Shown: positions 813 through 54,486 of the stretch, piece after piece
Position numbering within the stretch: position 1 is the first letter of the stretch
How the letters are laid out: every line of letters begins with the position of its first letter
Sequence record: PX393109.1
From: a phage
DNA length: 64,000 nt
Direction: 5' to 3' (one strand)
The notes under the pieces: model-generated
Databases searched by the model: none
The model's input: only the letters and a program-made list of their open reading frames with translations
What the model was told of the DNA's origin: nothing
Program-made: the position numbers and the translations under genes

Positions 813-1670
813 ATGAATGATATACCGTTAATACCAGTCGATTGTCAGTGGTTGACGCTTCGTAACTGGTTCGCAGCCGGTAAGTCTCAGGATTTAGGTC
901 CTACAGTCGCCTCTACTATCGGTAGTGTAGCGAAGTTGATTAAGGAAGACGGATATAGCTCCGAACTAATCATGCTGTACGATCGGGGTAAGTGGCGATA
1001 CAGACCTAAGGATAAGAATCCAGAGTATAAGGCCAATCGTGAGTACGACGAGAGTTTCGAAGCATTGTGGGCTGCTATGAATGTTCTTCACGAGCAGATC
1101 TTCCCGTCGCTGGGTATTAAATGTATCCAGGTGTCTGGTGTGGAAGCCGATGATTTAGGCTACTACTATGCTCATTCTGGTCGTCCGGTCATGTTACACT
1201 CACGAGACCGAGACTGGTACTTATCCATTAATGAGAATACTTGTGTCCTGAATCCGGATGATGGTTTAGTAGATCTTCCCTGGTTGATGAAGACCTACGA
1301 TCTGGATGATCATAAGGATTACCTCATCTACAAAGCCATCGTCGGGGACGGCTCCGACAACATTCCAGGAGTGGCTACTGGCTTGAAGACTGTTAAGGAA
1401 GCGATTAACGCTTACAAAGATGGTTCGCTAAGCCAATCGGTAGAGTTCCGTGTTCGTTCCAATATGGAGCTAATGCGACTCGACAGGATTCTGACTGATA
1501 CCGAAGTCCACAACATCATTAAGGAGCAGGAGTCTAAGGTACAGATGCAACAGCGTATCTTACCGACTCTGGAAGAGTTCTGTCCAGGTCACAGATTTCC
1601 TCCGTATTTCCATGGTGTACTGGGTAAGTACAACAGATGCGTTACGGCTAAGATACTGGAGTCGGCATGA
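813..1670 (+). CDS. 5'-3' exonuclease / flap endonuclease (FEN family)
   Basis: H3TH-type motif IVGDGSDNIPGV and acidic metal-binding clusters typical of T5 D15/T4 RNase H/Pol I 5' nuclease domain. Confidence 0.8.
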   Translation: MNDIPLIPVDCQWLTLRNWFAAGKSQDLGPTVASTIGSVAKLIKEDGYSSELIMLYDRGKWRYRPKDKNPEYKANREYDESFEALWAAMNVLHEQIFPSLGIKCIQVSGVEADDLGYYYAHSGRPVMLHSRDRDWYLSINENTCVLNPDDGLVDLPWLMKTYDLDDHKDYLIYKAIVGDGSDNIPGVATGLKTVKEAINAYKDGSLSQSVEFRVRSNMELMRLDRILTDTEVHNIIKEQESKVQMQQRILPTLEEFCPGHRFPPYFHGVLGKYNRCVTAKILESA

Positions 1671-8424: not shown

Positions 8425-8460
8425 CCGCTTCTTTTACGGCTCCAAAGGCTGTTAAGGTGT
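8425..8460 (+). promoter_or_regulatory. class A conserved promoter-like motif, copy 2
   Basis: CCGCTTCTTTTACGGCTCCAAAGGCTGTTAAGGTGT upstream of 8482. Confidence 0.6.
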
Positions 8461-8481
8461 CGAAACTAATGAGGACAGAAC

Positions 8482-9222
8482 ATGTTTGGTAAACATATCG
8501 AGTGTAACTTCGTTCCTGGTACTAAGGTCACGAAGGCTTCACTGGGCAACGGAGGTACCTCCTACTTAGTCCAGAAGCACTTTCTCCAATGGATGCTCCG
8601 TAACGAAATTATCTCCGGGCCAATCCTGGATATGGGATTAGGTCGTGGAGAGATCGGTCTAGCTCTCCGTAACGCAGGATTCGAAGGTCAGATCACAGGT
8701 CTGGACATCTGCGAAGACTACATCAAAGGCAGTGTAAATGTATATAGCGATATCTACATCTGCAATATCGTTGAACTGCTGAAAGATCTTCCTATTGAAG
8801 AGCTGGATAAATTCGGCACTATTATCTGGCTAGATGTGTTGGAGCATCTGGATAGCGAAGATGGGCTTATGGTGTTGTCTAAGCTATTCCAGTCTAAGGC
8901 TAAAATCGTGATCGGTACTCCTAACTACGAGTATCGTCAGCGTGGTACGGAGACTAATCCTTTCGAGGAACATAAATCTCACTGGGACTGCCGACTCCTT
9001 ACCCAGTTTAATCCAGATCTCGCACTGTTCGATAACATTGGTGCTGCTACTTATCTGTGGGATCAATCGGATAAGACCGGTAATATTCCTCTGCTTAAGT
9101 ACGAGCAGTCTAAGGTACAGAAACGTGAAGTGCCTAAGCTGCTGGAAGATACCGGATTTGGTGAAGGAATCTGGGATGTAACAGCTAAGGTGAAGATAGC
9201 AGATCTCTCCGAATTAAAGTAA
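8482..9222 (+). CDS. class I SAM-dependent methyltransferase
   Basis: Motif I ILDMGLGRGEIG, acidic post-I GLDICEDY, motif II-like IIWLDVLEHL. Confidence 0.6.
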   Translation: MFGKHIECNFVPGTKVTKASLGNGGTSYLVQKHFLQWMLRNEIISGPILDMGLGRGEIGLALRNAGFEGQITGLDICEDYIKGSVNVYSDIYICNIVELLKDLPIEELDKFGTIIWLDVLEHLDSEDGLMVLSKLFQSKAKIVIGTPNYEYRQRGTETNPFEEHKSHWDCRLLTQFNPDLALFDNIGAATYLWDQSDKTGNIPLLKYEQSKVQKREVPKLLEDTGFGEGIWDVTAKVKIADLSELK

Positions 9223-9265
9223 TATATACATAGCCATCTTACGAGGTGGCTAGATATCTATTATT

Positions 9266-9301
9266 TCGCTCTTTTTAGGGTTCGAAAGGCTGTTAGGTTG
9301 T
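9266..9301 (+). promoter_or_regulatory. class A conserved promoter-like motif, copy 3 (GTTAGG variant)
   Basis: TCGCTCTTTTTAGGGTTCGAAAGGCTGTTAGGTTGT upstream of 9324. Confidence 0.55.
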
Positions 9302-9323
9302 ACAAGTTAACTGAGGAATTAAA

Positions 9324-10232
9324 ATGAAGAAGTTAGATTTGATGATTGGCTGCACTAACCACACAGCAGCTACACTATCCCAGATTCTTAAGATGGGTGT
9401 AAGTCTGGACCAGGTTATGGTAGTTGATCAGGATCATACCAAGCATGGTTCAGTAGCGTTAACTGCTCCTCGTGAGGGATCAGTACGACTTCCTTATTTC
9501 GACTCGGTTATCGAAGAGCTGAATCAGGGTAAGTACCGCAATCCGGAAAGCTACATCTATACCAAAATCGGTAACGATCTGCACGCTATCGAAAGTACGT
9601 GGTCTAAAGCTGACCAATTATCCTGCCTTCGCTCCGAAGCTAATCTGGGAACTATGCCTGATTCGCTGATTGTACCGTCGTTTAGACTGTACCAGAAGCC
9701 TCAGGAGGCGTTTGTACGCCGTGATCGTGTTCACGGGGGCAAGGGTGCAGGCACTATGTCGGACCTTCTGGGGGACTCCCCAATTTTGGTCTGTGATAAG
9801 GCGCCGGACGAATATACTACTTCTCTGGTACTTCAAGCAGATGTTATCGACGGTATGGTAGTTGCCTGGGATCTTCTGGTTAGCCCGAGCGGGTTCAAGG
9901 ATTATGCAGATATTTTCACTATCCAGGGTAAATCCTACGAAGATACTGACTTCACTCCGTACTGCCATAACTACGTTATATCTACTGATGCCCGTGGATT
10001 CGGCTATAGTCATTCGGTAGACCACTTCGAAGATGTTGCGCAATTCGTTGCAGACGCATGTAACGTACGCGAGGGTATGATGAGCACTGAGCTCTTCTGT
10101 ACTCGGGATCTTCAGGAGTGCTTCTATATCGAAACCAACTTCCGTAGTGCGGACATCGTCCTCGCTACTTCACCTGCTGGCTACGCATACGTCCGTCGCC
10201 AGTTAATCGCTAAGGGCGTAATTGAGGAATAA
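9324..10232 (+). CDS. hypothetical protein (302 aa), member of putative modification cluster
   Basis: ORF with own class A motif and RBS; no confident domain assignment from sequence alone. Confidence 0.5.
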   Translation: MKKLDLMIGCTNHTAATLSQILKMGVSLDQVMVVDQDHTKHGSVALTAPREGSVRLPYFDSVIEELNQGKYRNPESYIYTKIGNDLHAIESTWSKADQLSCLRSEANLGTMPDSLIVPSFRLYQKPQEAFVRRDRVHGGKGAGTMSDLLGDSPILVCDKAPDEYTTSLVLQADVIDGMVVAWDLLVSPSGFKDYADIFTIQGKSYEDTDFTPYCHNYVISTDARGFGYSHSVDHFEDVAQFVADACNVREGMMSTELFCTRDLQECFYIETNFRSADIVLATSPAGYAYVRRQLIAKGVIEE

Positions 10233-10235
10233 TCA

Positions 10236-11618
10236 ATGTCAGATTCAAAGGTAGTTACCTGGGGGACGGTGCTAGTAACGGTGGGTATCATACTCGCCAT
10301 TATGTTAGCTCCCACCCAGTTTGGTGCTGTAATGGACTGGAGTAAGTCTGTATTCATATCTCAGTATGGATTCATATTTACCTGGTCTTCGCTGATCTTC
10401 CTAGCGTTCCTGGCATTCTTTGTATTCAGCAAGCATGGTAACATTAAGCTGGGTAAAGGTGCTCCGAAATATAATCGCTTTACCTATTACTCCATGATGT
10501 TTAGTACCGGTATGGGTGTATCCATGATTTATTATGGTGTACTCGAACCTATGTACCATCAGCAGGAGGGTATGTCCGAACGTCAGAATATGGTAACTAC
10601 CTTCTTTGACTGGGGACTTAACGCATGGGCAGTTTATGCAGTCGTAGGGGTGGCATTCGGGTACTTACTGCATGTACGTGGTGAAGACCGTCCGCTTAAT
10701 CAGTTATTCAAGTCCCGAGCTCTGAATAACCTTAATACGATAAGCTTACTCTTCTCTACCATCATAGGCTTAACCCTGTCGTTCGTCTACGCAGTAGGCC
10801 CGATCAGTTCCGGATTTAAAGAGTTCCTGGGAGTGGATGTTGGTCCTTACACCATTATCGCGCTCCTGACTCTGGGTACTGTACTTAGTGCCGTAACTGG
10901 TGTCGATCGTGGGGTTAAGTGGTTATCCAGATATAATGTAATCGTAGCTCTATCTATTATGGCATTCGTTGCTGTAAGTGGTACATTCTTCGAATACCTC
11001 TGGAAGACCATCACCTATTCTGGTAGCTATCTGCTCCAGATTATTCCTATGTCAGTAAACATCGGCAGTACTGCTGAAGAGAAGCAATGGCTGGCTAGCT
11101 GGCCTTATGCTTACTATGCAGCCTGGGTAGGTTGGGCATTATTCGTCGGAGCGTTTGTGGCACGTATCTCTTACGGCCGTACTATTCGCGAACTGATCCT
11201 CGGATGTGTACTGTTCCCTACCATCATCAGTAACGTCTGGTTTACCGTATTCGGTGTAGCTGGTCTACAACATGGTGCTCAGGATATCTTCCAGCTTCTG
11301 GCTAATTTCCCAGGCGGATGGATATTCTCGGTAATTACCCTCGTGTCTGTGATCCTGTTCTTTATTACAGGTCATGACTCAGCAGGTATTACGGTAGAGT
11401 CCATGACCGCTCCTAGAACTCGTGTATTCTGGATTGTAAGCATGGGTGTAGTTGCTGCTGCACTTAACTGGGCAGGTGGCGACGTAGTAACTGTAACGAA
11501 GACTCTGGTAGCTGTATCGGCTGTTCCGGTACTGATTGGGGTATTGTGTATTCTATTCGGGTTCCTCAAGATCTTTGTACCTAAAGTATTCTTGGCTAAG
11601 GAAACTCCGCCTGTTTGA
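10236..11618 (+). CDS. BCCT-family transporter (betaine/carnitine/choline transporter-like)
   Basis: Multi-TM protein with Trp-rich BCCT signature region AWVGWALFVGAFVARISYGRTIRELILG, as I recall it from BetT/CaiT/OpuD. Confidence 0.7.
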   Translation: MSDSKVVTWGTVLVTVGIILAIMLAPTQFGAVMDWSKSVFISQYGFIFTWSSLIFLAFLAFFVFSKHGNIKLGKGAPKYNRFTYYSMMFSTGMGVSMIYYGVLEPMYHQQEGMSERQNMVTTFFDWGLNAWAVYAVVGVAFGYLLHVRGEDRPLNQLFKSRALNNLNTISLLFSTIIGLTLSFVYAVGPISSGFKEFLGVDVGPYTIIALLTLGTVLSAVTGVDRGVKWLSRYNVIVALSIMAFVAVSGTFFEYLWKTITYSGSYLLQIIPMSVNIGSTAEEKQWLASWPYAYYAAWVGWALFVGAFVARISYGRTIRELILGCVLFPTIISNVWFTVFGVAGLQHGAQDIFQLLANFPGGWIFSVITLVSVILFFITGHDSAGITVESMTAPRTRVFWIVSMGVVAAALNWAGGDVVTVTKTLVAVSAVPVLIGVLCILFGFLKIFVPKVFLAKETPPV

Positions 11619-11642
11619 TGACCTAAAAGGCTGTTAAGGTGT
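11607..11642 (+). promoter_or_regulatory. class A conserved promoter-like motif, copy 4
   Basis: CCGCCTGTTTGATGACCTAAAAGGCTGTTAAGGTGT overlapping 3' end of transporter gene. Confidence 0.55.
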
Positions 11643-11653
11643 CAGAGGCGTAC

Positions 11654-11686
11654 GGGGTTAGGTCTCTACGGCCTAACCCCATTTTT
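11654..11686 (+). terminator. hairpin terminator (GGGGTTAGG...CCTAACCCC + ATTTTTG)
   Basis: 9-bp stem and T-run located between class A copy 4 and the next gene; shares CCCCATTTTTGTGTAG tail with terminator at 4437. Confidence 0.6.
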
Positions 11687-11704
11687 GTGTAGCGAGGATT
11701 AATA

Positions 11705-12316
11705 ATGAAGTCACGACTGATTATCAGCCCACATCACGATGATGAGATTCTGGGTTGCGGAGGTATTATGAGCAAATTCCGCGATGACCAATTCTTCATC
11801 CTCGAAGTAACTGCTCCGGACGAGACCCGTCGTGGCGAAGCCGAAGCAGCATTCGGTGTCTATCCGAATATCAAAGAAGTACATTGCCTGGAGCGTAACG
11901 ATGCCTCCACAGGCGATGGTATGACTCAGAAGGATATTCCGCAATTGGCTAAGGATATTGCGGACTATGTTGCTAAAATCAGGCCGGATGTAGTCTATAT
12001 TCCGTTCAGTAGCCTACACCAGGACCATCAACTAGTTAATCATGCTGCTCGTGTAGCTCTCCGAGCGTATAACTGGCTTATCCTGGAATATGAGTATGCC
12101 GAGTCCCTGACCCAGTTCGGTCAGATGGAACCTAATTACTTCGAGCGTCTGAATAAGGACGATATTGAGTGTAAGTGCCAGGCTATGGGACGATTCGACT
12201 CCCAGATTAAGTCAGACCGAGATACCCAGAGTATCTTAGCCCTAGCCACCTTACGTGGATATTCCGCCCAGTGGCCGTACGCCGAAGGGTTTCGCTTAGT
12301 TCGTCAAATTGGATAA
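11705..12316 (+). CDS. PIG-L/LmbE-family deacetylase (N-acetyl-sugar deacetylase-like)
   Basis: N-terminal ISPHHDDEILGCGG and HQDH motifs characteristic of the zinc-dependent LmbE/PIG-L fold. Confidence 0.65.
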   Translation: MKSRLIISPHHDDEILGCGGIMSKFRDDQFFILEVTAPDETRRGEAEAAFGVYPNIKEVHCLERNDASTGDGMTQKDIPQLAKDIADYVAKIRPDVVYIPFSSLHQDHQLVNHAARVALRAYNWLILEYEYAESLTQFGQMEPNYFERLNKDDIECKCQAMGRFDSQIKSDRDTQSILALATLRGYSAQWPYAEGFRLVRQIG

Positions 12317-12322
12317 ATAATT

Positions 12323-13357
12323 ATGACCACCAAAGTAGCTTTTATCATCCCAACCTATCATCGTCTGAAGTCGGTACTCCGTCAGATTCAGTCGTTCAAA
12401 GATGCTAAAAAGACTGACGACTCTATTGAGTATCGCTTCTTCTACTTTATTCAGGATGCCTCCGAAGAAGATAAGGCAATTCTGGAAGAGCAGTTTGGTG
12501 GGGATGAGCAATTTAATTTCTGTCATAGCCCTAAGTACGAAAATCCGGTAATCGGAGAAATCCGTGCCCATGCTCTGGATAAAGCATGGATTGTAATGGA
12601 GAAGCAGGACTGGTGCCCAGACATCTGCTACTTCGTGGATGATGATGTCTGGTTCGCCGACGATATCTTCCATCTGGATCGGTCCATTATCGACTTCGAG
12701 GGATCTGAGTTTGAGATGGCGTTCGTCCGTAGCTTCAAGAACCGTAACTACAAGATTGTTGAACTCTGCGATCGTCAGTCCCATAATAACACTGCTCCGG
12801 CTACTGACCTGGGTATTATGGTCAAGACTAGCGAGAAGATGTTCTGGCTGTTCGATAAGACCTTCCAGCAACTCACTGTAGGTGAGGATTGCTACCTGTT
12901 GTTTAAAGGTATGGCGATGGGATGGAAAGTGGGCCAGGTAACCGGTACTGGTAGCTCGTTCTACTGGGATGAGAACTGGTTAATGGACACCTCTTCTAAT
13001 GGCGGTGGTATTCACGAAGTCACCGTAGCTAAGCTAGGCTACTCTCCGAAAGATATGGTAACTCGTAATGAGCTGCTTAGCCGTCCAGATAAGTCCTACG
13101 TACAGTGGCATTGTGCAGATATGTTCCACTATGACTCTGCAGATAGCTCGTTCCGTCGTATTCGTCCCAACATCCAGGAATACTTGAAAGAGTATTGTAC
13201 GGCTACCGAAGATGCAATTATCCGAGCTCCTGGTGCTGGGGTAATGAAGTTCGATGGAACTAACCGTACGGTATTCGGATTAAACAAAGACTATTCCTAC
13301 TTAACTGATCTCAATGATAAGTGGCTGAGTTGGGCATCAGCTAATTCGCTTCTTTGA
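12323..13357 (+). CDS. GT-A fold glycosyltransferase (family 2-like)
   Basis: N-terminal AFIIPTYHR and DXD-type YFVDDD motifs. Confidence 0.5.
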   Translation: MTTKVAFIIPTYHRLKSVLRQIQSFKDAKKTDDSIEYRFFYFIQDASEEDKAILEEQFGGDEQFNFCHSPKYENPVIGEIRAHALDKAWIVMEKQDWCPDICYFVDDDVWFADDIFHLDRSIIDFEGSEFEMAFVRSFKNRNYKIVELCDRQSHNNTAPATDLGIMVKTSEKMFWLFDKTFQQLTVGEDCYLLFKGMAMGWKVGQVTGTGSSFYWDENWLMDTSSNGGGIHEVTVAKLGYSPKDMVTRNELLSRPDKSYVQWHCADMFHYDSADSSFRRIRPNIQEYLKEYCTATEDAIIRAPGAGVMKFDGTNRTVFGLNKDYSYLTDLNDKWLSWASANSLL

Positions 13358-13382
13358 TGAGCTAAAAGGCTGTTACATTGTG
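13346..13382 (+). promoter_or_regulatory. class A conserved promoter-like motif, copy 5 (core embedded in hairpin GGCTGT..ACAGCC)
   Basis: TCGCTTCTTTGATGAGCTAAAAGGCTGTTACATTGTG. Confidence 0.55.
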
Positions 13383-13404
13383 ACAGCCTACGGAGAAATT
13401 AAAT

Positions 13405-14484
13405 ATGAAAATTGCAGTAACTAACTTTTCGCCATGCAGCGATAAATCCATCATCGCCAGTAACACTCTGGCATCCTGGTTAGCCTACGGACTTCAGGCG
13501 GACTTGCTGGATGATACTCCTAAGTTTGTTAAGGCTATGGAAGATGGCACCAAATATGACGTGATCATCGCCGTCAATGGTGTTCCTACCTTCTGTAAGT
13601 TCCGCGATGAGATGTATAAATTCTGGGTAGACCAGGCGGACCTCGGAGCTAAGTTTTACTGGATTGGTCAAGATTATTCATCACGTATGCGTATCCAGGG
13701 TCCGCAGTGGCGACACATCACAGCAGCTACGACATTTAAAGTAGTAGCAGCATTCGAGCGTACTTCCTGGGGTAATCAGTACTCCCCTAGCGAAGAGAAC
13801 TATCACCACATTAACTGGAACCGTCTTACCTACGTTCCTGGTCGTAAGCCTCGCTACGGCTCATCTGATAAACCAGACAATAGCCTGCTGTATTACGGTG
13901 CTGCTCGTGAAGGTCGCTTCCATAAGTTCACTCAGTACTTCTCCCAGCAGGATGGTCTGGAACTGTTTATGTCGGTGCCTAGCTACAAAGCTCAGATGTC
14001 TATCGCTAAACATACTGGTGGTCTTGCTGGATTTGACGGCTACGAGCAGGAAAACTGGGAAGAGCTGGATCCTAAAGAACGTAAGTGGCTGGGGCCTGCT
14101 GCTCCTATTAACTGGCTGCCTAAGTTTAAGCTGTCAGAGATGCTGGATGAAGTGGCTAAATACGCAGCGGTACTGCTTATTGAAGACTGGAACTCTAGTA
14201 ACTCGTTCTATACCAGCCCACCTAACCGTTATTATGAATACCTGAGCTCTGGTACTCTGATGTTGGTGGATAAAGATGCTGCCGGAACAATAATCCGGAG
14301 CGGCGTCCCCGAAGAGCTGCTGGCTCCTCTGATCGTCTCCAGTAATGCGGAGATTGCAGAGAAACTGAAAGATCGTGATGCTCTGCTGAAACATCAGTAT
14401 GAGAATCTGTATCTGCGCAAGGATTACGCACAAGAACTTCAGGATGAAGTAATCGACTACTTTACCAAAGAAGGTATTCTTTAA
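13405..14484 (+). CDS. DNA beta-glucosyltransferase-like protein (T4 BGT-like, GT-B fold)
   Basis: Several colinear blocks resemble T4 beta-glucosyltransferase as I recall it (MKIAVTNFS vs MKIAIINMG; YDVIIAVNG; YYGAAREGRFHK vs YGGSFRSGQRE; RYYEYLSSGTLMLVD vs RVWETMASDAVMLID). Recall-based, needs alignment. Confidence 0.5.
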   Translation: MKIAVTNFSPCSDKSIIASNTLASWLAYGLQADLLDDTPKFVKAMEDGTKYDVIIAVNGVPTFCKFRDEMYKFWVDQADLGAKFYWIGQDYSSRMRIQGPQWRHITAATTFKVVAAFERTSWGNQYSPSEENYHHINWNRLTYVPGRKPRYGSSDKPDNSLLYYGAAREGRFHKFTQYFSQQDGLELFMSVPSYKAQMSIAKHTGGLAGFDGYEQENWEELDPKERKWLGPAAPINWLPKFKLSEMLDEVAKYAAVLLIEDWNSSNSFYTSPPNRYYEYLSSGTLMLVDKDAAGTIIRSGVPEELLAPLIVSSNAEIAEKLKDRDALLKHQYENLYLRKDYAQELQDEVIDYFTKEGIL

Positions 14485-15455
14485 TGTCAACACCGTTAGG
14501 TCTGCATTACGAAGGACTCCTTGGGATGATAAATCCTGAGGAGTTACGGGAGTATGTGGAGTATAACCGTGAACGTACAGAGGTTTATTATAAGAAGGAG
14601 GTGCTTAAGCTGCCTCCTCCGTGGACGGAACATAAGTGGATTAGTAAGTTCAAATTCACTAACGTGTTCCGTAAGCACGATCGTGAAACAGTGTGGGCTA
14701 TTAAGAACATTCTGGAGAACGATTCTTTAAGCTGGGAGAGTAAAGCACTTAATGTAGTACTCTTCCAGATGATAAACCGTGGTGATTCATATATGGATCG
14801 CTTCCGCAGAGTCCTTCCTCTTTATGAGATGAGCTATGACGACATACATAACATGGGTCGCGAAGAGCTACGTCGTTATGAGGATGGTCCTCCGTTCACC
14901 GCTCCACAGCAATCAAATGCCTACTTCCTTAGCACAGCAGTTAAGATGGCTAATGAAGTATGTCCAGAGGATATTAAGTACAGTGTAGCTGCCAGAGCCT
15001 ATCTGGTGAAGACCTACAGTGATCCTATCTTATGGGCATGGAAGTCTCCGTTCGCTACCGAGGCTATCGAGCATCTGTTACAGGTATCTGGATTAGGTCC
15101 GTTCATGGCATATCAATGCTGGGCAACTATGTCCTACTCTAAAGAGACTGCGTATACAGATAATGACGCTATCGTATGTGGACCTGGGACTCAGGATGGG
15201 GTATGGTACATGATTAATGACCAGAATCCTCCCTGTGGTTATCAGGTATTCGTGGAATGGTGGTATCAGAACATCAAAGAGATATGTGCACATTTCGGGT
15301 ATTCATGGGAACCGGAGAAATGGTTCCACTTCATGCCAGAGGATGAGCGATTCTATACTCGCCAGATGTTCACCAACTCATTCTGCGAATTCTCGAAACT
15401 ACATAAACTGAATCACGAGATCCGTATGAGACCTCGCTGGTATAAGTTTAGCTAG
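14484..15455 (+). CDS. hypothetical protein (323 aa), member of putative modification cluster
   Basis: ORF translationally coupled (TAATG) to upstream gene; no confident domain. Confidence 0.5.
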   Translation: MSTPLGLHYEGLLGMINPEELREYVEYNRERTEVYYKKEVLKLPPPWTEHKWISKFKFTNVFRKHDRETVWAIKNILENDSLSWESKALNVVLFQMINRGDSYMDRFRRVLPLYEMSYDDIHNMGREELRRYEDGPPFTAPQQSNAYFLSTAVKMANEVCPEDIKYSVAARAYLVKTYSDPILWAWKSPFATEAIEHLLQVSGLGPFMAYQCWATMSYSKETAYTDNDAIVCGPGTQDGVWYMINDQNPPCGYQVFVEWWYQNIKEICAHFGYSWEPEKWFHFMPEDERFYTRQMFTNSFCEFSKLHKLNHEIRMRPRWYKFS

Positions 15456-15481
15456 TTCACATTTACACCAGCCTTTTTAGT

Positions 15482-15517
15482 CCGCTCTTTTAGGGTCTTG
15501 AAAGGCTGTTAAAATGT
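15482..15517 (+). promoter_or_regulatory. class A conserved promoter-like motif, copy 6
   Basis: CCGCTCTTTTAGGGTCTTGAAAGGCTGTTAAAATGT. Confidence 0.6.
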
Positions 15518-15544
15518 GGGAAAGATTCTTAATTGGAGAGAATA

Positions 15545-16267
15545 ATGAGAGACTATAGTATCCCAGGCTACAGTGTAATTATGTCTGGTGCGCAGGGTAC
15601 CGGTAAATCTACCCTGGCTAAAGGTTGGGAAGAATCAACCGAATGTACCTTCCGTGCAGTACAGACTCGTGACCATCTTCCTCTGGGAGTAACATCCCAT
15701 ATGGATATTCTGCGCTTAGCTGTAGAAGATCCTATGGAAGCGGTAGAGTTCCAGCTGCGTCTTATTCGTCAGCGAACTCAGATGTTCAAGGATGCCTACA
15801 ATCGTGGCGAGTTGATCGTCAGTGATCGTGCGGTATTCGATTCGTACGTTTACTTCCTGCTGCATAACAGTATGTTTGCCAGCCAGGAAGCTCGTGATGA
15901 GGCATTACGTCTCAGTAACGAGTCTATTGATTATTATAACATGACTCTGTTCTTCAATACGAAGGATAAGAGTATTGAGGACAATAACTTCCGTGTTGTT
16001 GATCCTGAATACTCTGTAGCAGTCAGTTCTACTCTCCTTAAGGTAACTATGCGTGCCTACGAGGAGCGATTCGGTGCTGCGTTGTGTAATTCTGTAACTC
16101 TGAATCATCCGGTGTATCCTGGATCAATCACAGCTCGTTTTACTAATACTGGTAAAGGTATTATGATCCTGAACGAGCCATCTGGTATGATCCCTCAGGA
16201 GGCCCGTCTGGAGTTACTGTCCTCTGCAGTTAAGTCTATTGATTCAGTGCGTAAGGACTCTAAATGA
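15545..16267 (+). CDS. P-loop nucleotide/deoxynucleotide kinase (dNMP kinase-like)
   Basis: Walker A MSGAQGTGKST near N-terminus, DR..FDSYVY lid-like region; size and layout resemble dNMP/dNK kinases. Start at ATG 15545 (track start is TTG). Confidence 0.55.
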   Translation: MRDYSIPGYSVIMSGAQGTGKSTLAKGWEESTECTFRAVQTRDHLPLGVTSHMDILRLAVEDPMEAVEFQLRLIRQRTQMFKDAYNRGELIVSDRAVFDSYVYFLLHNSMFASQEARDEALRLSNESIDYYNMTLFFNTKDKSIEDNNFRVVDPEYSVAVSSTLLKVTMRAYEERFGAALCNSVTLNHPVYPGSITARFTNTGKGIMILNEPSGMIPQEARLELLSSAVKSIDSVRKDSK

Positions 16268-17337
16268 TCTCGGTAATTCGCGGTAACAGTAATACTGAAA
16301 TCCTGGTTAACAGCATCAATACTATGGATAAGGCTGGTGAGTTGCAGAAGTCCAGAACTTCTGTTAACTCTTCGGCGGTAGTATCCATCGGTCATGCTGT
16401 AGTTGAGTTAAGTAATCCGATTAATCGTTGGATGGCTCATCCAGAACGTAAAGACAATATCCTCGGAATTATGGGGGAAGTATTGTGGGTACTGTCTGGT
16501 GGCTATGCAATCGATAACTGGATGTCGATTATGGTTCCTCGCGCTAAGATGTTTAGCGATGATATGGTTACCTGGCGTGGTGCTTACGGTGAGCGTCTGT
16601 ATAACTACGATCAACTCCAGACTGTAACAGACCGCCTCCGTTCTGACCTGGGTAACCGTAAGTGCGTGGCTACTATTCACGATCCCAGCCGTGATTCTGA
16701 TGTAGGTCTGGTAAACAGCATTGGCAGCATCAATACCGCAGATATGATCTGCAACATTGCTCTATCGTTTAAGTACCGTAATGGTGGTCTGGACTGCACG
16801 GTATTCAACCGTAGTAATGATCTAATCTGGGGATTGACTAACGTTAATCTGGTGGAGTTCACGATCATCCAGGAAATCATCGCAACTATGCTCAAAGTAG
16901 ATATGGGCAACTATGTGGTGATGACGGATGATCTCCACTGGTATCCGGAAGTGTCGAACATCAAGAAGCAGGTAAGTAATATCCGAGCTTATGTTGACGA
17001 CATTAATGAAGCTCCGGTAACTACGATTGATCTCGGATCACTTAATTCCTGGTATAAGATCCGTACCTACTTCCAGCATTACATCGCTACTCTTGAAGAT
17101 GCTGCTTCTCGTTATAATAGCGATCACAGTATTCTAGAATACGTAATGGAAGATGTTGGTCGAGAGTTCCAACCAGGATCAACTCTGGATGTGATGATGT
17201 GGTTAGCAGGCGCTCATTATCTATGTAAGACTACTGGAGCTCACATGTCTATCCAGTGCGAGCATCTGGTTAATTCACCATTCGTGAAATGGGTCGCGAA
17301 CCGCCTCGGGGATAAGTCTCCGTTTATTCTGGAATAA
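16264..17337 (+). CDS. thymidylate synthase / deoxypyrimidylate hydroxymethylase superfamily enzyme (ThyA-gp42 fold)
   Basis: Colinear ThyA-family motifs: EVLWVLSGG, WRGAYGERLY, DQLQ..RKCVATIHDP, catalytic-Cys region MICNIAL, NRSNDLIWGL, DDLHWY. The RSND and C-x-N features resemble T4 dCMP hydroxymethylase more than canonical ThyA. Confidence 0.7.
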   Translation: MISVIRGNSNTEILVNSINTMDKAGELQKSRTSVNSSAVVSIGHAVVELSNPINRWMAHPERKDNILGIMGEVLWVLSGGYAIDNWMSIMVPRAKMFSDDMVTWRGAYGERLYNYDQLQTVTDRLRSDLGNRKCVATIHDPSRDSDVGLVNSIGSINTADMICNIALSFKYRNGGLDCTVFNRSNDLIWGLTNVNLVEFTIIQEIIATMLKVDMGNYVVMTDDLHWYPEVSNIKKQVSNIRAYVDDINEAPVTTIDLGSLNSWYKIRTYFQHYIATLEDAASRYNSDHSILEYVMEDVGREFQPGSTLDVMMWLAGAHYLCKTTGAHMSIQCEHLVNSPFVKWVANRLGDKSPFILE

Positions 17338-17373
17338 CCGCTCTTTTTAGGGCTCGAAAGGCTGTTAAGGTGT
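17338..17373 (+). promoter_or_regulatory. class A conserved promoter-like motif, copy 7
   Basis: CCGCTCTTTTTAGGGCTCGAAAGGCTGTTAAGGTGT. Confidence 0.6.
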
Positions 17374-17420
17374 GGGAGGCAACTTCCATACCTTTATTTT
17401 TGTAACTTAGGAGAAATTAC

Positions 17421-18020
17421 ATGAAAGATCTTTTTAAGGTACCAGTGTGTACCAATAACGTGAATCGTTTCGCAGGTAAGCAAGTACTGTCTCATCGCTC
17501 TACTATCTCGGAGCATAGCTTCGAAGTTACTTACTACTCTACTCTGATTGTTCAGAAACTGGTGATGGATGGATTTTTAACTGCTGAGCAGGGTCTGGAA
17601 GTAAATCAGTACTCGTTGGTTCACGACATTCCAGAGATCTTTACAGGTGATGTCCCCTACACTGCTAAGGCTCGCTTCCCAGAGTTAAAAGAGACTCTGA
17701 ATAAAGTTGAGCAGGAAATCTGGGAAGAGGTACTTCCTACTTTCCGCACTCCTGCATCTGCCGAAGCTAAGTTCATCTGTAAAGTTGCAGATGCTATTGC
17801 GGTATCTCGTGAGATCATGACTGAGTTCAGCATGGGTAACATCTTCTTTGGCGAAAGCGAGCTGGAGAACTGCCGCAACATCTTCAGTACCTGCTTCAAT
17901 AAGTACAAAGACGAAGTGAGTGATGATGTATGGATGGGTACTCTCCAGTCTCTTCTCCATATGGCACATGGTAGTTCAATAGAGCACCTGGTTAAAGAGA
18001 CTATTGGCAATGCAGATTAA
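17421..18020 (+). CDS. HD-domain phosphohydrolase (YfbR-like 5'-deoxynucleotidase)
   Basis: HSFEV...VHDIPEIFTGDVP...KVADAIAV matches H...HD...D metal-binding pattern of YfbR-type HD nucleotidases. Confidence 0.65.
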   Translation: MKDLFKVPVCTNNVNRFAGKQVLSHRSTISEHSFEVTYYSTLIVQKLVMDGFLTAEQGLEVNQYSLVHDIPEIFTGDVPYTAKARFPELKETLNKVEQEIWEEVLPTFRTPASAEAKFICKVADAIAVSREIMTEFSMGNIFFGESELENCRNIFSTCFNKYKDEVSDDVWMGTLQSLLHMAHGSSIEHLVKETIGNAD

Positions 18021-18330
18021 TATTCCTGAAACTGTTTACGTTGAGAGCTCGTTCGCTCGGACAATTGGTGCTGACGATCAGCACAGTAGTCGTATTGCTC
18101 CAATGAAGCTGCGTAAGAGTGGCTACATTGTTGGAGCTGGCTCATCGGTAGAGTTTCCGGTAGATAGTACGGTAACTGTCGACTCTATCTCTAATCTTTC
18201 TGTATCTTACCTGGGCTTAACTGCTCAGGTATTCTCTACAGACGAAGGTAAGTGGATTCGTCTGACTAACTCTAACAAGAACCATGCAGTACGCATCCAT
18301 GCGGGTCAGAGTTTAGTCTATGGAAATTGA
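18010..18330 (+). CDS. hypothetical protein (106 aa)
   Basis: ORF overlapping 3' end of HD gene; no domain recognised. Confidence 0.4.
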   Translation: MQINIPETVYVESSFARTIGADDQHSSRIAPMKLRKSGYIVGAGSSVEFPVDSTVTVDSISNLSVSYLGLTAQVFSTDEGKWIRLTNSNKNHAVRIHAGQSLVYGN

Positions 18331-20957: not shown

Positions 20958-20982
20958 CGGAGGTTTATTTTTGGAGTTAAAC

Positions 20983-23900
20983 ATGTTTCTGAATCACAAT
21001 TTAGTTGGCGAAGTAGACTATGTCATTATCGGGGACGAGCGCGAGAATAATGATGCTCCTCCGTTTGCTGCATCGAATGCTGGCCAAACTCTTGATGTAG
21101 CGCTAATTACAGCTGGGGTACATAACAAAGTTGGTCTGATAGAGATCAACAGAGATGGTACTTTCGAAGAGCTGTCTAACATAGACGAAATCCGTGATAA
21201 GGATGGTCTCAACTTTTACGAGCTGTGTGAAAAGCATGGCGTTAAGCATGTAATGACTTTGGGTCGCCAATTAGCTGCGACTATATCCCCAGGCTATACG
21301 CATAAGAAGACTCTGGATAAGCTACTGAAGTTCCCTCTGGGTAACATACCGGAGTATAACTTTAAGCTAGCTGTAGTCATGCACCATGCCCAGGTTGAAC
21401 GTAATCTGGATTCTGATCCTGGTATACTTGATTCGTGGATTGATCGTTTTAAGTTTCTGGTATTCGGCCAGAAAGAATCCGAATATAATGTAGAGTGGGA
21501 ATTCGTCGACTGGAACGGCCTCCAGGAGTTCCTTAACGACATTATGTGGTCTGGGTACAAAGGCTATCTCGGCCTCGACTATGAGTCTAACGCAGCTGAT
21601 TTATTCTCGGTAGACTTCCGGATCACTGGATTCAGTATCGCTAAGAAGATTGGTGATAAGGATGCCAAGTCCGTATGGTACAATGTTACCGGTAAAGAGA
21701 CTCCGGAACAGCTAGGATTCTTGCGTGACTTCCTGGTTAAGTTCCAGGAGCAGATCGTGGCGTTTAACTGTCCGTACGAGATTAAGACTACGTGGCATTG
21801 GTTAGACGTATTCTGCAAGTTTATCGATGCGATTGTAACTCTGACTATGCATGGCGAACGGAGCTCGTTGAAAGATGCTGCTCGTCGTTATTTACATGCA
21901 GACTTCTGGGAAGGGTCGGTACACGAATGGAAGGATCGTTGGGCAGCTATCTTCAAGGATATGAAGAAGCGTTGTACTCCTGAGCAGATTGCAGAGATTC
22001 AGTCTGGCGAGTTCAATATTGAGCATCACCTAGCTCTTAAAGCTGAGTACGAGAAACTCGTGGAAGCGGCTCCGACTAAGGCGGCTAAGAATCGTATTCC
22101 TGTTAACTTCAACCAGTTTATGCTGGATAAGATAGCCGAACTATCGGAGGAGCTCGAAGAATCCGAGATTATTTACTTGGCATCGTTCTACCCATATGAG
22201 TGGGGTGCGATTCCTCGTGAGATTCTTGGGGAGTACTGCTGCTATGACTCCGCGTACGGTGTGTTCATCCACGAGATGTTTTACGATAAGTATAAGGATG
22301 GGTATAACGTATATATGTTACATCCATACCTGGCATCTATCTTCGAAGCTAACGGTATTCGTTGGGATGACGAAGAGGCGACTAAAGAGTACGACTATTG
22401 CATGAGCAAAATGTCGGAGCACTTGGTTAGCCTAATCCCTAACCTTAAGTTACCTCCTGACCAGATGCTTACAGCTCGCGACTTTATCTATCGAGAGTTG
22501 CCGTACGAGAACGTATGGTACACTCCTGGTGGACAAGAGCGCCGTAAGATGGTTACTACTCTGGCTGGGAAGATTGCTGATCTGTCAGGATTCTTCAACC
22601 CTAACAGTAACGATAAGGCTAATAAGGAGAAGTTCTGGAAAGCCTATCTTACTGATGAAGTAGAGATGTGTACCATGCTATGGTCTGTAATGGACCAGCT
22701 TAAGGTGCATGACTACTGGGATAAAACCCTGCTGGCGATCTCTAAGGGGTTCGTGCCTAAGGATTCGGAGAAGCTGGAGAGGGAATTCTTCCGGGAGTTT
22801 CCGGTAGATGAGATCTTAACCAGGATCATCCAATTCGGGGATACTGCTGAGTCTAAGCATGTTCGGGAGTTAATTGCCATGTGCGTCCAGGACGGTCTGG
22901 AAGCTTATGAAGAGCGATTCACGAATAAGTTTAAAGCGGATGTTCTCGATGCCCAATTGGCTATTCACCAGTTGATGTTGGGAGTTAATCCGGATGACGA
23001 GTCTACCTGGAATACATCGTTCCGTATGATGGTTGACCTGAAGATGTATAAGCGTCACTACAAACAGATTGCTACATACATTGATGGTAAGGTAGGACGC
23101 CAGACGGTATGGGCAGCTAAACTACGTGATGGTTTACCTCCGCTGCGAGTTCGTAAGTACGACTGGGATAATCCGAAGTTGCAGGATGGTGAAGATTGCT
23201 ACATCATGACTCCGGACTTTAACTCGTTGGCTGCGATTACATCTCGTTGGCAGGCAGGTATTCATAACGTTCCTGGCGACAGTACTCTGCGTAACATCTG
23301 GGTATCTAAGCCGGAGGGTGGCCTGTGGTACCACCAGGACTTTAGCCAGGCTGAGCTGGTGATGGTTAGCGTGTTCGCCGATGACTCGGATATGAAGAAC
23401 GTATTCTTATCTGGTGGCGACATGCACCGATTCGTTAGCTCGATTGCATACCAGAAGTCTGAACCTGAAGTAACTGATGTTGAGCGTAAGGGTGGTAAGG
23501 CGATTAACTTCGCATTAGTATACCAGTCTAGCCTTGAATCGGTAGCGATGGTTGCTACTGGTGGTGATATGGAGCGTGCTCAGAATCTGATGGACACGGT
23601 ATTCGGTAAGTTTACCGGTCTTAAGGCATGGATTGATGCTACCAAGAAAAATGGCTTCGAGACTGGGTATGCTTATGGTTACTTCGGTAACCGTATCAAC
23701 CTGGAAGGTACCAACGTTAACTCTACTTCGGTGAACTATCCTATCCAGAATACTTCGTCGATGGTTGCTGGCGCAGGTATGTACTTCCTGGATGAGGACT
23801 TTAAGCAGTCCAATATGGAGGCCGAGACTCACATCATGGTCCACGACTCCTTGGATACCACATCCGGAATCAACGAGATGTTCAAGGTGTTCCAGAAGAC

Positions 23901-24270
23901 TCGTGAGAATATGGAGGGGGCTATTCGTGAACTCTGGGATATGCCTATGCGCACTGATATCGAATTCGGTGCTCGGGGCGGTTCCTTGATGGGTCTGGAT
24001 GACTATGGAGTTAACGAAGATGGTTCCGGATGGCTGATCGTTGAGGGTCGTGAGTCTGCATTGGAGAAACTACTGGAAGCTCTCGATCAGTATAGCCAGT
24101 GGACTCCATACGTAGAGATCCTTAAGGAGAAGGAGAAGTTAAACTCTATAGCTAACAGCTTCAACTCCAAATCCGGTATTCGTTCCGACGGTACAGGCTG
24201 GGGATGTAAGTATATCGAGCTTAAGGCTAAAATAACTCTGGAGCCTAAACATGGCGAGAAAGCAGCGTAA
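20983..24270 (+). CDS. family A DNA polymerase (Pol I-like) with N-terminal extension
   Basis: Motif A DFSQAELVMVS, motif B KGGKAINFALVYQ, motif C VHDSLD; N-terminal region has DEDD-like exonuclease motif LGLDYES. Start at ATG 20983 (track start is TTG). Confidence 0.8.
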   Translation: MFLNHNLVGEVDYVIIGDERENNDAPPFAASNAGQTLDVALITAGVHNKVGLIEINRDGTFEELSNIDEIRDKDGLNFYELCEKHGVKHVMTLGRQLAATISPGYTHKKTLDKLLKFPLGNIPEYNFKLAVVMHHAQVERNLDSDPGILDSWIDRFKFLVFGQKESEYNVEWEFVDWNGLQEFLNDIMWSGYKGYLGLDYESNAADLFSVDFRITGFSIAKKIGDKDAKSVWYNVTGKETPEQLGFLRDFLVKFQEQIVAFNCPYEIKTTWHWLDVFCKFIDAIVTLTMHGERSSLKDAARRYLHADFWEGSVHEWKDRWAAIFKDMKKRCTPEQIAEIQSGEFNIEHHLALKAEYEKLVEAAPTKAAKNRIPVNFNQFMLDKIAELSEELEESEIIYLASFYPYEWGAIPREILGEYCCYDSAYGVFIHEMFYDKYKDGYNVYMLHPYLASIFEANGIRWDDEEATKEYDYCMSKMSEHLVSLIPNLKLPPDQMLTARDFIYRELPYENVWYTPGGQERRKMVTTLAGKIADLSGFFNPNSNDKANKEKFWKAYLTDEVEMCTMLWSVMDQLKVHDYWDKTLLAISKGFVPKDSEKLEREFFREFPVDEILTRIIQFGDTAESKHVRELIAMCVQDGLEAYEERFTNKFKADVLDAQLAIHQLMLGVNPDDESTWNTSFRMMVDLKMYKRHYKQIATYIDGKVGRQTVWAAKLRDGLPPLRVRKYDWDNPKLQDGEDCYIMTPDFNSLAAITSRWQAGIHNVPGDSTLRNIWVSKPEGGLWYHQDFSQAELVMVSVFADDSDMKNVFLSGGDMHRFVSSIAYQKSEPEVTDVERKGGKAINFALVYQSSLESVAMVATGGDMERAQNLMDTVFGKFTGLKAWIDATKKNGFETGYAYGYFGNRINLEGTNVNSTSVNYPIQNTSSMVAGAGMYFLDEDFKQSNMEAETHIMVHDSLDTTSGINEMFKVFQKTRENMEGAIRELWDMPMRTDIEFGARGGSLMGLDDYGVNEDGSGWLIVEGRESALEKLLEALDQYSQWTPYVEILKEKEKLNSIANSFNSKSGIRSDGTGWGCKYIELKAKITLEPKHGEKAA

Positions 24271-53927: not shown

Positions 53928-54486
53928 TTTCAGTATGCAGAGTCTTGAAGACTTTGTACCAGAGCATGGTAAGAGCGTAGTAGTCTTCTACCACGAGCGA
54001 TTCTATTCCCGAGTAGAAATGCTACAGATGCAAGTAGAGTTCCACTACCAGATGATAGATGGCGATGGCTGCCCAGTTCCTCAGTGGGCATGCTATGATA
54101 ATCGTGACGACATACCGTTCGATAAGCCATTCATCTGGAAAGATAAGCAGGTTAAGTTCCTTACTCTGGACGACTGTATGGAAATACATAATCGTCATCC
54201 CAAGCACCACTATCGTTACTGGTGGGTTAAGGACTGGTTCCTAACTGGCGGAGGAAATAGCCAGTTAAATAGGGAACAGCTGGCGGAGATGTCGTTAGGG
54301 ATTATGAGTGCCGAACAGTTTAGTGCTGAGCTGGATAAGGGATGTGCTGATCTGGAAGCCAAGCGTATCTTACGTGAATTAACTCGTGAATCCCGTACTG
54401 GATATTGTGAGAAGCATGGCACTCGTCAGCTGGGTAAGGACCTATGTGATGTGTGCCGTATTGAACGTGCATTTATGGAGGGATGA
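53917..54486 (+). CDS. hypothetical protein with Cys-rich C-terminus (189 aa)
   Basis: ATG 53917 (track start is GTG); C-terminal CEKHG...CDVC. Confidence 0.4.
   Translation: MPINFSMQSLEDFVPEHGKSVVVFYHERFYSRVEMLQMQVEFHYQMIDGDGCPVPQWACYDNRDDIPFDKPFIWKDKQVKFLTLDDCMEIHNRHPKHHYRYWWVKDWFLTGGGNSQLNREQLAEMSLGIMSAEQFSAELDKGCADLEAKRILRELTRESRTGYCEKHGTRQLGKDLCDVCRIERAFMEG

Follow-up and report, generated by a model that had tools for sequence, protein, structure and literature searches.

A probable thymidine hypermodification island with a T4 BGT-like glycosyltransferase and candidate sugar-tailoring genes in a myophage genome segment

Why does a phage carry a thymidylate synthase-like gene, glycosyltransferases, a deacetylase and a membrane transporter in one uninterrupted row? 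The question is raised by ten consecutive + strand genes at 8425-18020 of a 64 000-nt stretch of phage DNA (sequence record PX393109.1; the whole stretch is called the window below), which is a segment of a myophage genome. The island region is 96.5% identical to Escherichia phage vB_EcoM_IME392 (IME392) and 94.6% identical to EP_H11, in whose records the ten genes are labelled solely as BCCT/choline transporter, thymidylate synthase or hypothetical proteins. An earlier note, made from the letters of the window alone, had read the row as a DNA base hypermodification island, and all ten open reading frames (ORF1 to ORF10; Table 1) were found in their places. This reading holds with its two key members, a ThyA-type hydroxymethylase and a DNA glycosyltransferase resembling T4 beta-glucosyltransferase (BGT). 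We propose, with a probability of about 0.7, that the island is a thymidine hypermodification cluster: 5-hydroxymethyldeoxyuridine (5-hmdU) would replace thymidine, a sugar would then be attached in DNA, and the sugar would finally be tailored.

The glycosyltransferase ORF6 belongs to a family of which an exhaustive search recovered 269 representatives. An AlphaFold model built with the family alignment (predicted local distance difference test score, pLDDT, 92) had a GT-B fold of two Rossmann domains that was closest to T4 BGT; BshA was also among the structural neighbours. A profile of 74 family sequences aligned with T4 BGT over the whole length (hhalign: 96.1% probability, E 3e-9, 282 columns), which bears out the earlier identification as BGT-like. 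ORF6 residues D90, R168, R171, R275 and E278, invariant or nearly so in the family, align with D100, R191, R195, R269 and E272 of BGT. The last four are residues with which BGT binds uridine diphosphate (UDP). D100 is the catalytic aspartate of BGT (bioRxiv 10.1101/2023.12.21.572611). Among curated models, no Pfam, PHROG or NCBIfam match to ORF6 was found except Glyco_trans_1_2 at E 0.017. T4 alpha-glucosyltransferase gave no sequence-profile signal with ORF6, though its fold is similar. The nearest homologue beyond the lineage (P0006, 40% identical) lies on contigs of <2 kb, and its context is uninformative. From its homology, ORF6 is predicted to move a sugar onto 5-hydroxymethyluracil (5hmU) in DNA.

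The acceptor is suggested by the neighbourhoods of the ORF6 family. We examined 80 IMG/VR loci, taking the genes within 8 kb on each side and using locally built profiles. A ThyA-like hydroxymethylase was present in 39/80 loci and a Tet/JBP dioxygenase in 20/80, so that a 5hmU-making enzyme stood near the glycosyltransferase gene in 59/80; the two occurred together in 0/80. Both of these routes give 5hmU, and no other observation speaks more strongly for glycosylation of 5hmU in DNA by this family. ParB was found in 25 loci, PF18723 in 42, a genuine 5-hmdU DNA kinase in 24 and an HD hydrolase in 26, and at least one of ThyA-like, Tet/JBP, ParB and PF18723 was present in 74/80. The pairing of ParB with Tet/JBP is the arrangement of phage T-dioxygenase systems (PMC13229309). 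A radical S-adenosylmethionine (SAM)/SPASM protein of ~342 aa was encoded in 36/80 loci (21 with ThyA-like, one with Tet/JBP) and is not encoded in the window.

ORF7, listed in the earlier note as an unknown 323-aa protein, turned out to be a member of PF18723 (Pfam 5e-35; score 121.7 bits, cut-off 25; profile positions 5-277 of 281). This family marks thymidine hypermodification; its Pfam name is now 'HMUDK_hel', and it was formerly aGPT-Pplase clade 1 (aGPT-Pplase1). ORF7 is 33% identical to ORF120 of phage RP13, its other homologues are Kuttervirus and M6 gp55-like proteins, and all of these match PF18723 too. In the 80 loci, PF18723 shared the strand of the glycosyltransferase gene in all cases (42/42), less than 100 nt away in 14, and it accompanied ThyA-like enzymes (33 loci) and never Tet/JBP (0 loci). 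No 5-hmdU DNA kinase was detectable in 23 of the 42 PF18723 loci, and the combination seen in the window, glycosyltransferase plus PF18723 without the kinase, is thus a recurring one. The ORF6 family was also found with Tet/JBP and without kinase or PF18723.

Across 31 homologues of ORF7, C301-E302-x-x-K305 and G233-P234-G235 were invariant. The Cys-Glu-x-x-Lys motif suggests that PF18723 may be catalytic and not purely structural; in clade 2 transferases, a Cys and a Glu are essential (PMC8989533). A role of ORF7 as an amino-acid:DNA transferase found no support, with no match to PF18724 and an hhalign probability of 0.5% to an M6 gp51-like protein. We predict that ORF7 is a 5-hmdU-directed DNA enzyme or a partner of the glycosyltransferase, and it probably recognises or processes 5-hmdU.

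Which base is modified depends on ORF9 and on the enzymes of the nucleotide pool. ORF9 is a member of the ThyA/gp42 superfamily, as had been claimed (Pfam Thymidylat_synt, 5e-12). Its best match in the PDB was the CMP hydroxymethylase MilA (3e-13), compared with 6e-5 for the best thymidylate synthase; all NCBIfam thymidylate-synthase models were far below their cut-offs, and the thymidylate-synthase-specific insertion was missing in the alignment. The profile and PDB searches thus placed ORF9 nearer to hydroxymethylases than to the ordinary thymidylate synthase that the earlier note had named as the contrary case. ORF9 is 37-42% identical to Ackermannviridae homologues, one of them annotated as a deoxyuridylate hydroxymethyltransferase, and its next relatives are enzymes of phiW-14, SPO1-like and M6-like phages. 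The phages of these four groups have thymidine hypermodifications built from 5-hmdU (PMC5889632, PMC8989533). The catalytic Cys C163 as well as R183, S184, D186, H225 and Y227 were invariant in the alignment. At the column of N177 of E. coli ThyA, ORF9 has Asn, as do the enzymes of phiW-14, SPTD1 and M6-like phages, whereas T4 gp42 and MilA have Asp. ORF9 is hence a predicted dUMP hydroxymethylase with 5-hydroxymethyl-dUMP (5-hmdUMP) as its product.

The relatives of ORF9, the Asn residue, and the presence of a dUTPase and a dCTP deaminase-like protein in the window together indicate that the modified base is derived from thymine and not from cytosine. PF18723 points the same way, and the analogy with the glucosylated 5-hydroxymethylcytosine (5hmC) of T-even phages, drawn in the earlier note, therefore named the wrong base. 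The DNA polymerase clade of IME392 and EP_H11 is shared with the T-hypermodified phages SP-15, YerA41 and RP13 (PMC12686479; bioRxiv 10.1101/2025.03.26.645540).

ORF8 is a P-loop nucleotide kinase, with matches to AAA_28 (2e-9) and phrog_2107 'thymidylate kinase' (1e-11) and weak ones to dNK and thymidylate-kinase families; the start annotated in IME392 corresponds to window position 15545. We asked whether it could be a canonical 5-hmdU DNA kinase (5-HMUDK), and this was rejected. PF18748, the family of these kinases, gave no match to ORF8 at E up to 10, the Walker A motif was the sole part aligned with the M6-like kinase by BLASTP, and a hidden Markov model (HMM) made from 19 metagenomic 5-HMUDKs found the M6-like kinase at 2e-21 and matched no ORF of the window. 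In Acinetobacter phage Ab1-TPeters, as in the window, kinase, hydroxymethylase and HD genes form a triad adjoining primase, helicase and PolA; Ab1-TPeters has neither a PF18723 nor an ORF6-family gene, and two more nucleotide kinases are annotated in it. Since ORF8 lies outside the 5-hmdU DNA kinase family and its ortholog is linked to hydroxymethylase and HD genes in Ab1-TPeters, a role as 5-hmdUMP kinase is more probable for it than one as DNA kinase. It occupies the place that 5-hmdU DNA kinases hold in metagenomic loci such as L029, and a non-orthologous DNA kinase, that is, a functional analogue, is possible.

ORF10 was assigned to the YfbR/DatZ-like HD hydrolases, close to the 5'-deoxynucleotidase proposed before: it matched YfbR-like (2e-14; 54.4 bits against a cut-off of 25.9), HD_3 (3e-6) and phrog_7076 'dATP triphosphohydrolase' (6e-19), the best PDB match was the dATPase DatZ (2e-5) followed by YfbR, and the HD motif stands at residue 68. 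It is predicted to deplete the canonical thymidine nucleotide. A 108-aa ORF (18004-18330) that overlaps the end of the HD gene is 58% conserved in the relative L004, has a weak match in Ab1-TPeters and matched no family.

The remaining half of the island, ORF1 to ORF5, consists of candidate tailoring genes. The best defined are ORF3 and ORF4. ORF3 matched Pfam BCCT at 4e-92 over profile positions 1-481 of 485; all NCBIfam equivalog models for particular substrates stayed below cut-off, the closest being the glycine-betaine BCCT model (243 bits against 650). Beyond IME392 and EP_H11, its homologues in the phage collection reach just 22-31% identity, and many come from records that are short, unannotated or very large. 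ORF4 matched Pfam PIG-L at 7e-14 (52.9 bits against a cut-off of 28.2), had a BshB1-like model as its best NCBIfam match (1e-5), and retains both active-site motifs, PHHDDE at residue 9 and HQDH at residue 105. By its family, it is predicted to convert a residue of the N-acetylglucosamine (GlcNAc) type to a free amine.

The other three proteins gave weaker signals. ORF1 has a DMGLGRG motif at residue 50 and matched the class I families Methyltransf_25, 23, 31 and 11 at 4e-5 to 1e-3, all below cut-off; a UbiG-like model matched at 1e-5. ORF5 had no match in Pfam, PHROGs, NCBIfam or the PDB by sequence or profile, and an hhalign comparison with a DXD glycosyltransferase of L004 gave no support. 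It carries invariant IIPTY (8), QDAS (44) and DDD (106) motifs with GT-A-like spacing. Its homologues formed three clusters among 5.8 billion proteins, with no relatives in IMG/VR. For ORF2, no match was found in Pfam (E up to 10), the family libraries or the PDB with single-sequence and profile searches, the Pfam scan of a 36% identical homologue was empty, and IMG/VR held no relatives. The four ORF2 clusters among the 5.8 billion proteins gave a four-sequence alignment, and the AlphaFold model from it reached a pLDDT of just 35, too low for use. GGKG (138) and ETNFR (270) are invariant in ORF2, and from these motifs an ATP-grasp-like ligase is possibly encoded; hhalign against an ATP-grasp-like protein of L004 gave nothing.

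Of the names that the earlier note had given to these proteins and to ORF8, the BCCT transporter, the PIG-L/LmbE deacetylase and the P-loop kinase were confirmed, and its idea that a deacetylase points to an amino sugar stands as a suggestion. Two names were not borne out by a family model: the SAM methyltransferase (ORF1) has the motif and family matches that all stay below cut-off, and the GT-A glycosyltransferase (ORF5) has fitting motifs and no library or PDB match.

The layout of the island links these genes to one another. A phage-specific motif, AAAGGCTGTTA, occurs in 16 exact + strand copies in the window (sites spanning 5094-56889) against 1.07 expected, and none of 100 shuffles reached 17. 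The repeated class A motif noticed before is thus real, and 6/10 island genes have their own copy (Table 1). Every island copy falls in an intergenic gap, and the four genes without one each follow closely on a first gene, two at distances of 3 and 6 nt and two with overlaps of 1 and 4 nt. The motif thereby defines six units: ORF1; ORF2 and BCCT; PIG-L and ORF5; ORF6 and ORF7; ORF8 and ORF9; and ORF10 onwards. AAAGGCTGTTA also precedes the topoisomerase and polymerase genes, from which we conclude that the island is expressed together with the replication genes. The motif, AAAGGCTGTTA(A), often has CCGCTCTTTT(T)AGGG before it and sometimes a hairpin and T-run after it (e.g. 11619-11704 and 17338-17420). 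Perhaps these sites are promoters of a class that a multisubunit RNA polymerase of the phage itself reads. Split genes resembling beta' and beta subunits of such an enzyme lie at 28502-30016 (with Rpb1 domains 3-5) and 31596-33164 (annotated as beta subunit in IME392).

Table 1. Coordinates and assignments of the island genes, of the promoter-like motif and of related genes in the window
Feature	Position	Strand	Description
ORF1	8482-9222	+	246 aa; probable class I SAM-dependent methyltransferase, small-molecule type
ORF2	9324-10232	+	302 aa; no family match; stop 3 nt before BCCT start
ORF3	10236-11618	+	460 aa; BCCT-family transporter, betaine/choline/carnitine type, full-length
ORF4	11705-12316	+	203 aa; PIG-L/LmbE-family metal-dependent N-deacetylase
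ORF5	12323-13357	+	344 aa; possible GT-A-type glycosyltransferase, motifs only
ORF6	13405-14484	+	359 aa; GT-B glycosyltransferase homologous to T4 BGT; predicted 5hmU-DNA glycosyltransferase
ORF7	14484-15455	+	323 aa; PF18723; overlaps ORF6 stop by 1 nt
ORF8	15533-16267	+	244 aa; P-loop kinase; overlaps ORF9 start by 4 nt
ORF9	16264-17337	+	357 aa; ThyA-superfamily pyrimidine hydroxymethylase, predicted dUMP to 5-hmdUMP
ORF10	17421-18020	+	199 aa; HD-domain (deoxy)nucleotide hydrolase, YfbR/DatZ type
Promoter-like motif AAAGGCTGTTA	8444-8454	+	upstream of ORF1
Further island copies of AAAGGCTGTTA	9285, 11626, 13365, 15501, 17357	+	upstream of ORF2, 4, 6, 8 and 10
Family A DNA polymerase	20971-24270	+	1099 aa; Pfam DNA_pol_A 7e-32
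dUTPase	57513-57983	+	Pfam dUTPase 2e-35; would supply dUMP
dCTP deaminase-like protein	58269-58892	+	Pfam DCD 1e-23; IME392 annotation putative dCTP deaminase; would channel dCTP to dUTP

Relatives of the phage showed which part of the island is constant. In L004 and L005, two Logan contigs that are ~75% identical to the window, the order of ORF2 to ORF10 is kept and ORF1 is absent. Five other genes stand in place of the methyltransferase (L004 1956-5860, L005 3-2838), and these replacements include a DXD glycosyltransferase-like, a phosphatidylserine (PS) decarboxylase-like (2e-7), a weakly ATP-grasp-like and a Cys-rich protein. The BCCT transporter, 89% identical to that of L004, is the best-conserved island protein (PolA 79%, topoisomerase A 75%). 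In Ab1-TPeters, a syntenic phage, the slot directly after topoisomerase II, which in the window holds the island, is filled by two GT4 glycosyltransferases and a 516-aa unknown protein (11704-15593 of that locus, L096), and this phage probably makes a different sugar modification of 5-hmdU. A conserved core with a variable tailoring end is the look of a biosynthetic cluster. The PS-decarboxylase-like enzyme, the BCCT transporter and the UbiG-like methyltransferase taken together hint at serine, ethanolamine or choline-type chemistry.

Taken together, these results suggest modification in three stages. In the first, for which family membership and synteny speak, the dCTP deaminase-like protein and the dUTPase would produce dUMP, ORF9 would turn it into 5-hmdUMP and ORF8 would phosphorylate this toward the triphosphate. 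ORF10 would destroy the competing thymidine nucleotide, as DatZ does with dATP, and the phage family A polymerase would put 5-hmdU in place of T. The second stage, suggested by homology and gene neighbourhoods, would take place on the polymer: ORF6 would pass a sugar from a UDP-sugar to the 5-hydroxymethyl group, giving a base J-like product, and ORF7, translationally coupled to ORF6, would work with it on 5-hmdU.

The third stage is speculative. UDP-GlcNAc is abundant in E. coli, and no recognisable nucleotide-sugar synthesis gene was found in the island. The sugar might most likely be GlcNAc, for which no phage-made donor would be required. ORF4 might then deacetylate it to a positively charged amine, and the base would in this resemble the thymine modifications with an amine that are already known. 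ORF5, ORF1 and ORF2 might extend or decorate the sugar, and the BCCT transporter might bring in a quaternary-ammonium-type compound that this decoration requires or that becomes part of it. The product would shield the DNA from host nucleases, and the final base probably represents chemistry not previously seen. Its most specific form is a tentative proposal that we consider unlikely to hold in every part: an amino sugar O-linked to 5hmU and bearing a further group, the whole built in part from a BCCT-imported quaternary-ammonium compound (choline, betaine or similar), with PF18723 as a Cys-dependent DNA enzyme, and no passive 'helical domain of a kinase', that partners BGT-like glycosyltransferases in many phages.

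Several observations weigh against a tailored thymidine modification. We infer the product chemistry of this phage, IME392 and EP_H11 from genes, and the identity of the sugar is a guess from the deacetylase. YerA41, RP13 and Carin-5 resisted standard sequencing (PMC12686479), whereas the genome records of IME392 and EP_H11 are complete; the modification here may accordingly be a small one, may be partial or may be lacking altogether. A true 5-hmdU DNA kinase in 24/80 loci means that the ORF6 family may act after a phosphorylated intermediate and not directly on 5-hmdU. Homologues of ORF1 to ORF5 were absent from all 80 loci, BCCT, PIG-L, ORF2 and ORF5 being confined in this setting to the IME392/EP_H11 lineage, and these genes are consequently linked to DNA modification solely by position, shared motif and conserved synteny; PIG-L genes also occur in other phages (Campylobacter, Vibrio, Mycobacterium, Arthrobacter). 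The methyltransferase call for ORF1, probable as it is, is weak, and ORF5 is a possible glycosyltransferase from its motifs. The role of PF18723 is not established experimentally in the cited literature, and the glycine-adduct step of M6 required just gp54 and gp51 (PMC8989533).

Could ORF6 to ORF10 alone modify the DNA, yielding 5-hmdU with a simple sugar, while ORF1 to ORF5 are unrelated auxiliaries? The transporter would then keep the infected cell osmotically fit, and PIG-L, ORF5 and the methyltransferase would remodel a host envelope glycan or glycosylate virion proteins. The missing homologues in the 80 loci and the PIG-L deacetylases of other phages are what this explanation would predict, and a second glycosylation-like cluster at 43204-46597 indicates that glycan genes are not confined to the island. 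It is nevertheless at odds with the order of ORF2 to ORF10 kept in ~75% identical relatives, with the position of ORF1 to ORF5 between topoisomerase and replication genes under the same promoter-like motif, with the glycosyltransferases in the post-topoisomerase II slot of Ab1-TPeters, and with the BCCT transporter being the most conserved island protein. We regard both the restriction of DNA modification to ORF6 to ORF10 and the auxiliary roles of the other genes as unlikely. In the cluster at 43204-46597, a DUF7217 gene (2e-77) stands with genes for two proteins weakly resembling MptE/Maf, for a 322-aa protein with weak resemblance to GT1 (45009-45977) and for an unknown protein of 209 aa; the products could put more sugars on the DNA or glycosylate virion proteins.

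A second alternative follows the logic of phages ViI and M6. Here ORF8 would be a non-orthologous 5-hmdU DNA kinase, the Cys-Glu pair of ORF7 would swap the phosphate for a small nucleophile, possibly a BCCT-imported hydroxyl or amine compound, and the glycosyltransferases would decorate this linker to give linker-sugar bases as in SP-15, YerA41 and Carin-5. ORF7 and ORF8 are indeed adjacent, like PF18723 and the kinase in M6-like phages, and the two are fused in SP10 gp186 (PMC5889632). The position of ORF8 is that of true 5-HMUDKs in metagenomic loci, the invariant C301/E302 recall the Cys and the Glu that clade 2 transferases cannot do without (PMC8989533), and linker-sugar thymine phages fall within the polymerase clade (PMC12686479). 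But ORF8 matches neither PF18748 nor the HMM of real 5-HMUDKs, and its ortholog travels with hydroxymethylase and HD genes in a phage without PF18723; ORF7 is not PF18724, and its alignment with the amino-acid:DNA transferase was not significant. The ORF6-family members that occur with Tet/JBP and without kinase or PF18723 fit direct action on 5hmU. We consider this route, in both its kinase and its linker steps, doubtful to improbable.

A T-even-like cytosine pathway (dCMP hydroxymethylase, dNMP kinase and BGT leading to glycosylated 5hmC) is very improbable. In its favour, ORF6 is homologous to T4 BGT, which acts on 5hmC, and the solved structure that ORF9 matches best, MilA, is a cytidylate hydroxymethylase. 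Against it, ORF9 has Asn where gp42 and MilA have Asp and is closest, among phage proteins, to dUMP hydroxymethylases, the dCTP deaminase-like protein and dUTPase would drain the dC pool toward dUMP, and both PF18723 and the polymerase clade are thymidine-modification markers.

When phage DNA is hypermodified, it withstands restriction enzymes and some CRISPR systems and can be refractory to sequencing, and new DNA-modifying enzymes come from such phages. If the cluster with its tailoring stage is as proposed, thymidine hypermodification would gain an amino-sugar branch, and this in an E. coli phage that is easy to grow (isolates IME392 and EP_H11). The 80 viral contigs indicate that the BGT-like family is widespread and a candidate 5hmU-DNA glycosyltransferase. 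They also yield a concrete hypothesis for PF18723, which is coupled to a BGT-like glycosyltransferase time and again, and solely in loci where the nucleotide pool supplies the 5hmU. A virus importing a building block for its own DNA chemistry is a testable idea, and the BCCT protein would then be the first virus-encoded transporter dedicated to feeding DNA modification.

Elsewhere in the window, a calcineurin-like phosphoesterase (Mre11/SbcD-type) and a Rad50/SbcC-type ATPase containing a zinc hook are joined in a single 921-aa ORF (1667-4432); these parts are usually separate proteins. A NADAR-domain protein (54483-55142, 8e-27) and an Rv2179c-like 3'-5' exoribonuclease (55847-56560, 1e-18) are possible counter-defence genes. 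A family X DNA polymerase lies beside an NAD-dependent DNA ligase (39788-42569), a repair pair reported to co-occur with the UDG (uracil-DNA glycosylase)-fused polymerase clade (bioRxiv 10.1101/2025.03.26.645540).

How much of this has been described? In 2025, probable T-modification was proposed for IME392 and EP_H11 on four grounds, namely the polymerase clade, aGPT-Pplase1, a homologue of ThyA and a dCTP deaminase, and a 5-hmdU DNA kinase was reported as not found in them (bioRxiv 10.1101/2025.03.26.645540; PMC12686479). Their glycosyltransferase, PIG-L, BCCT, ORF2, ORF5 and chemistry are absent from both papers. BGT-like DNA glycosyltransferases next to ThyS or 5mYOX/Tet form a class already on record (bioRxiv 10.1101/2023.12.21.572611), and no mention of a deacetylase came up in a text search of that report. 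The statement that the gene combination is not a described pathway thus applies, within the cited literature, to the part formed by glycosyltransferase, PIG-L, BCCT, ORF2 and ORF5 and to the product, and not to the probable T-modification or to the pairing of BGT-like enzymes with ThyS/Tet.

Compared with T4 (gp42, the gp1 dNMP kinase and the alpha- and beta-glucosyltransferases), the island shares a ThyA-superfamily hydroxymethylase, a kinase, exclusion of the canonical nucleotide and a GT-B enzyme for the hydroxymethyl group, and ORF6 keeps the catalytic and UDP-binding residues of BGT. Unlike in T4, the base is predicted to be derived from uracil, ORF6 is ~18% identical to BGT with no Pfam BGT assignment, and PF18723, a deacetylase, a transporter and extra tailoring genes, which T4 lacks, are present. 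With ViI, M6, PaMx11, phiW-14 and SP10 (Lee et al. 2018 and 2022; PMC5889632, PMC8989533) the island shares the predicted dUMP hydroxymethylase, 5-hmdU in DNA and post-replicative modification, and homologues of ORF9 and ORF7 occur there. Those phages append amino acids or polyamines and not sugars, whereas a BGT-like glycosyltransferase is encoded here. The PF18748 kinase and the PF18724 transferase were not detected in the window or the IME392 genome; nor were genes for pyridoxal phosphate (PLP), radical SAM, Nmad5, PF18724 or M6-type kinase proteins in the window and the whole IME392 genome by single-sequence phmmer, a search of low sensitivity.

SP-15, YerA41, Carin-5 and RP13 have oligosaccharide-bearing thymines, and IME392 and EP_H11 share their polymerase clade (PMC12686479; bioRxiv 10.1101/2025.03.26.645540). 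RP13 encodes the nearest homologue of ORF7 and a homologue of ORF8, and glycosyltransferases and a deacetylase were also reported in the Carin-5 cluster (same sources). This group differs in its pentyl-type linker with phosphate and its sequencing-resistant DNA; no recognisable linker-making genes were found here, and BCCT, ORF2 and ORF5 are not reported for the group. The clusters of Pyle et al. (bioRxiv 10.1101/2023.12.21.572611) and the T-dioxygenase systems (PMC13229309) resemble the island in placing a BGT-like GT-B or a GT-A enzyme beside a source of hydroxymethyl-pyrimidine, sometimes with sugar-tailoring genes, and the island falls within this broader class, but in the systems characterised in bioRxiv 10.1101/2023.12.21.572611 the base is 5hmC made by a methyltransferase and a dioxygenase.

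Base J of kinetoplastids (JBP and JGT) is like the predicted core product, a sugar O-linked to 5hmU, and part of the ORF6 family stands beside Tet/JBP. In contrast to base J, the source of 5hmU would be a ThyA-like enzyme working on the nucleotide pool, ORF6 is GT-B whereas JGT is GT-A-like, and more tailoring is predicted. By analogy only, the three candidate sugar steps recall mycothiol and bacillithiol synthesis (MshA/BshA, MshB/BshB, MshC/BshC), in which GlcNAc is added, deacetylated by a PIG-L enzyme and acylated at the amine. BshA is a structural neighbour of ORF6 and BshB1 the best NCBIfam match of ORF4; in the phage, the acceptor would be DNA.

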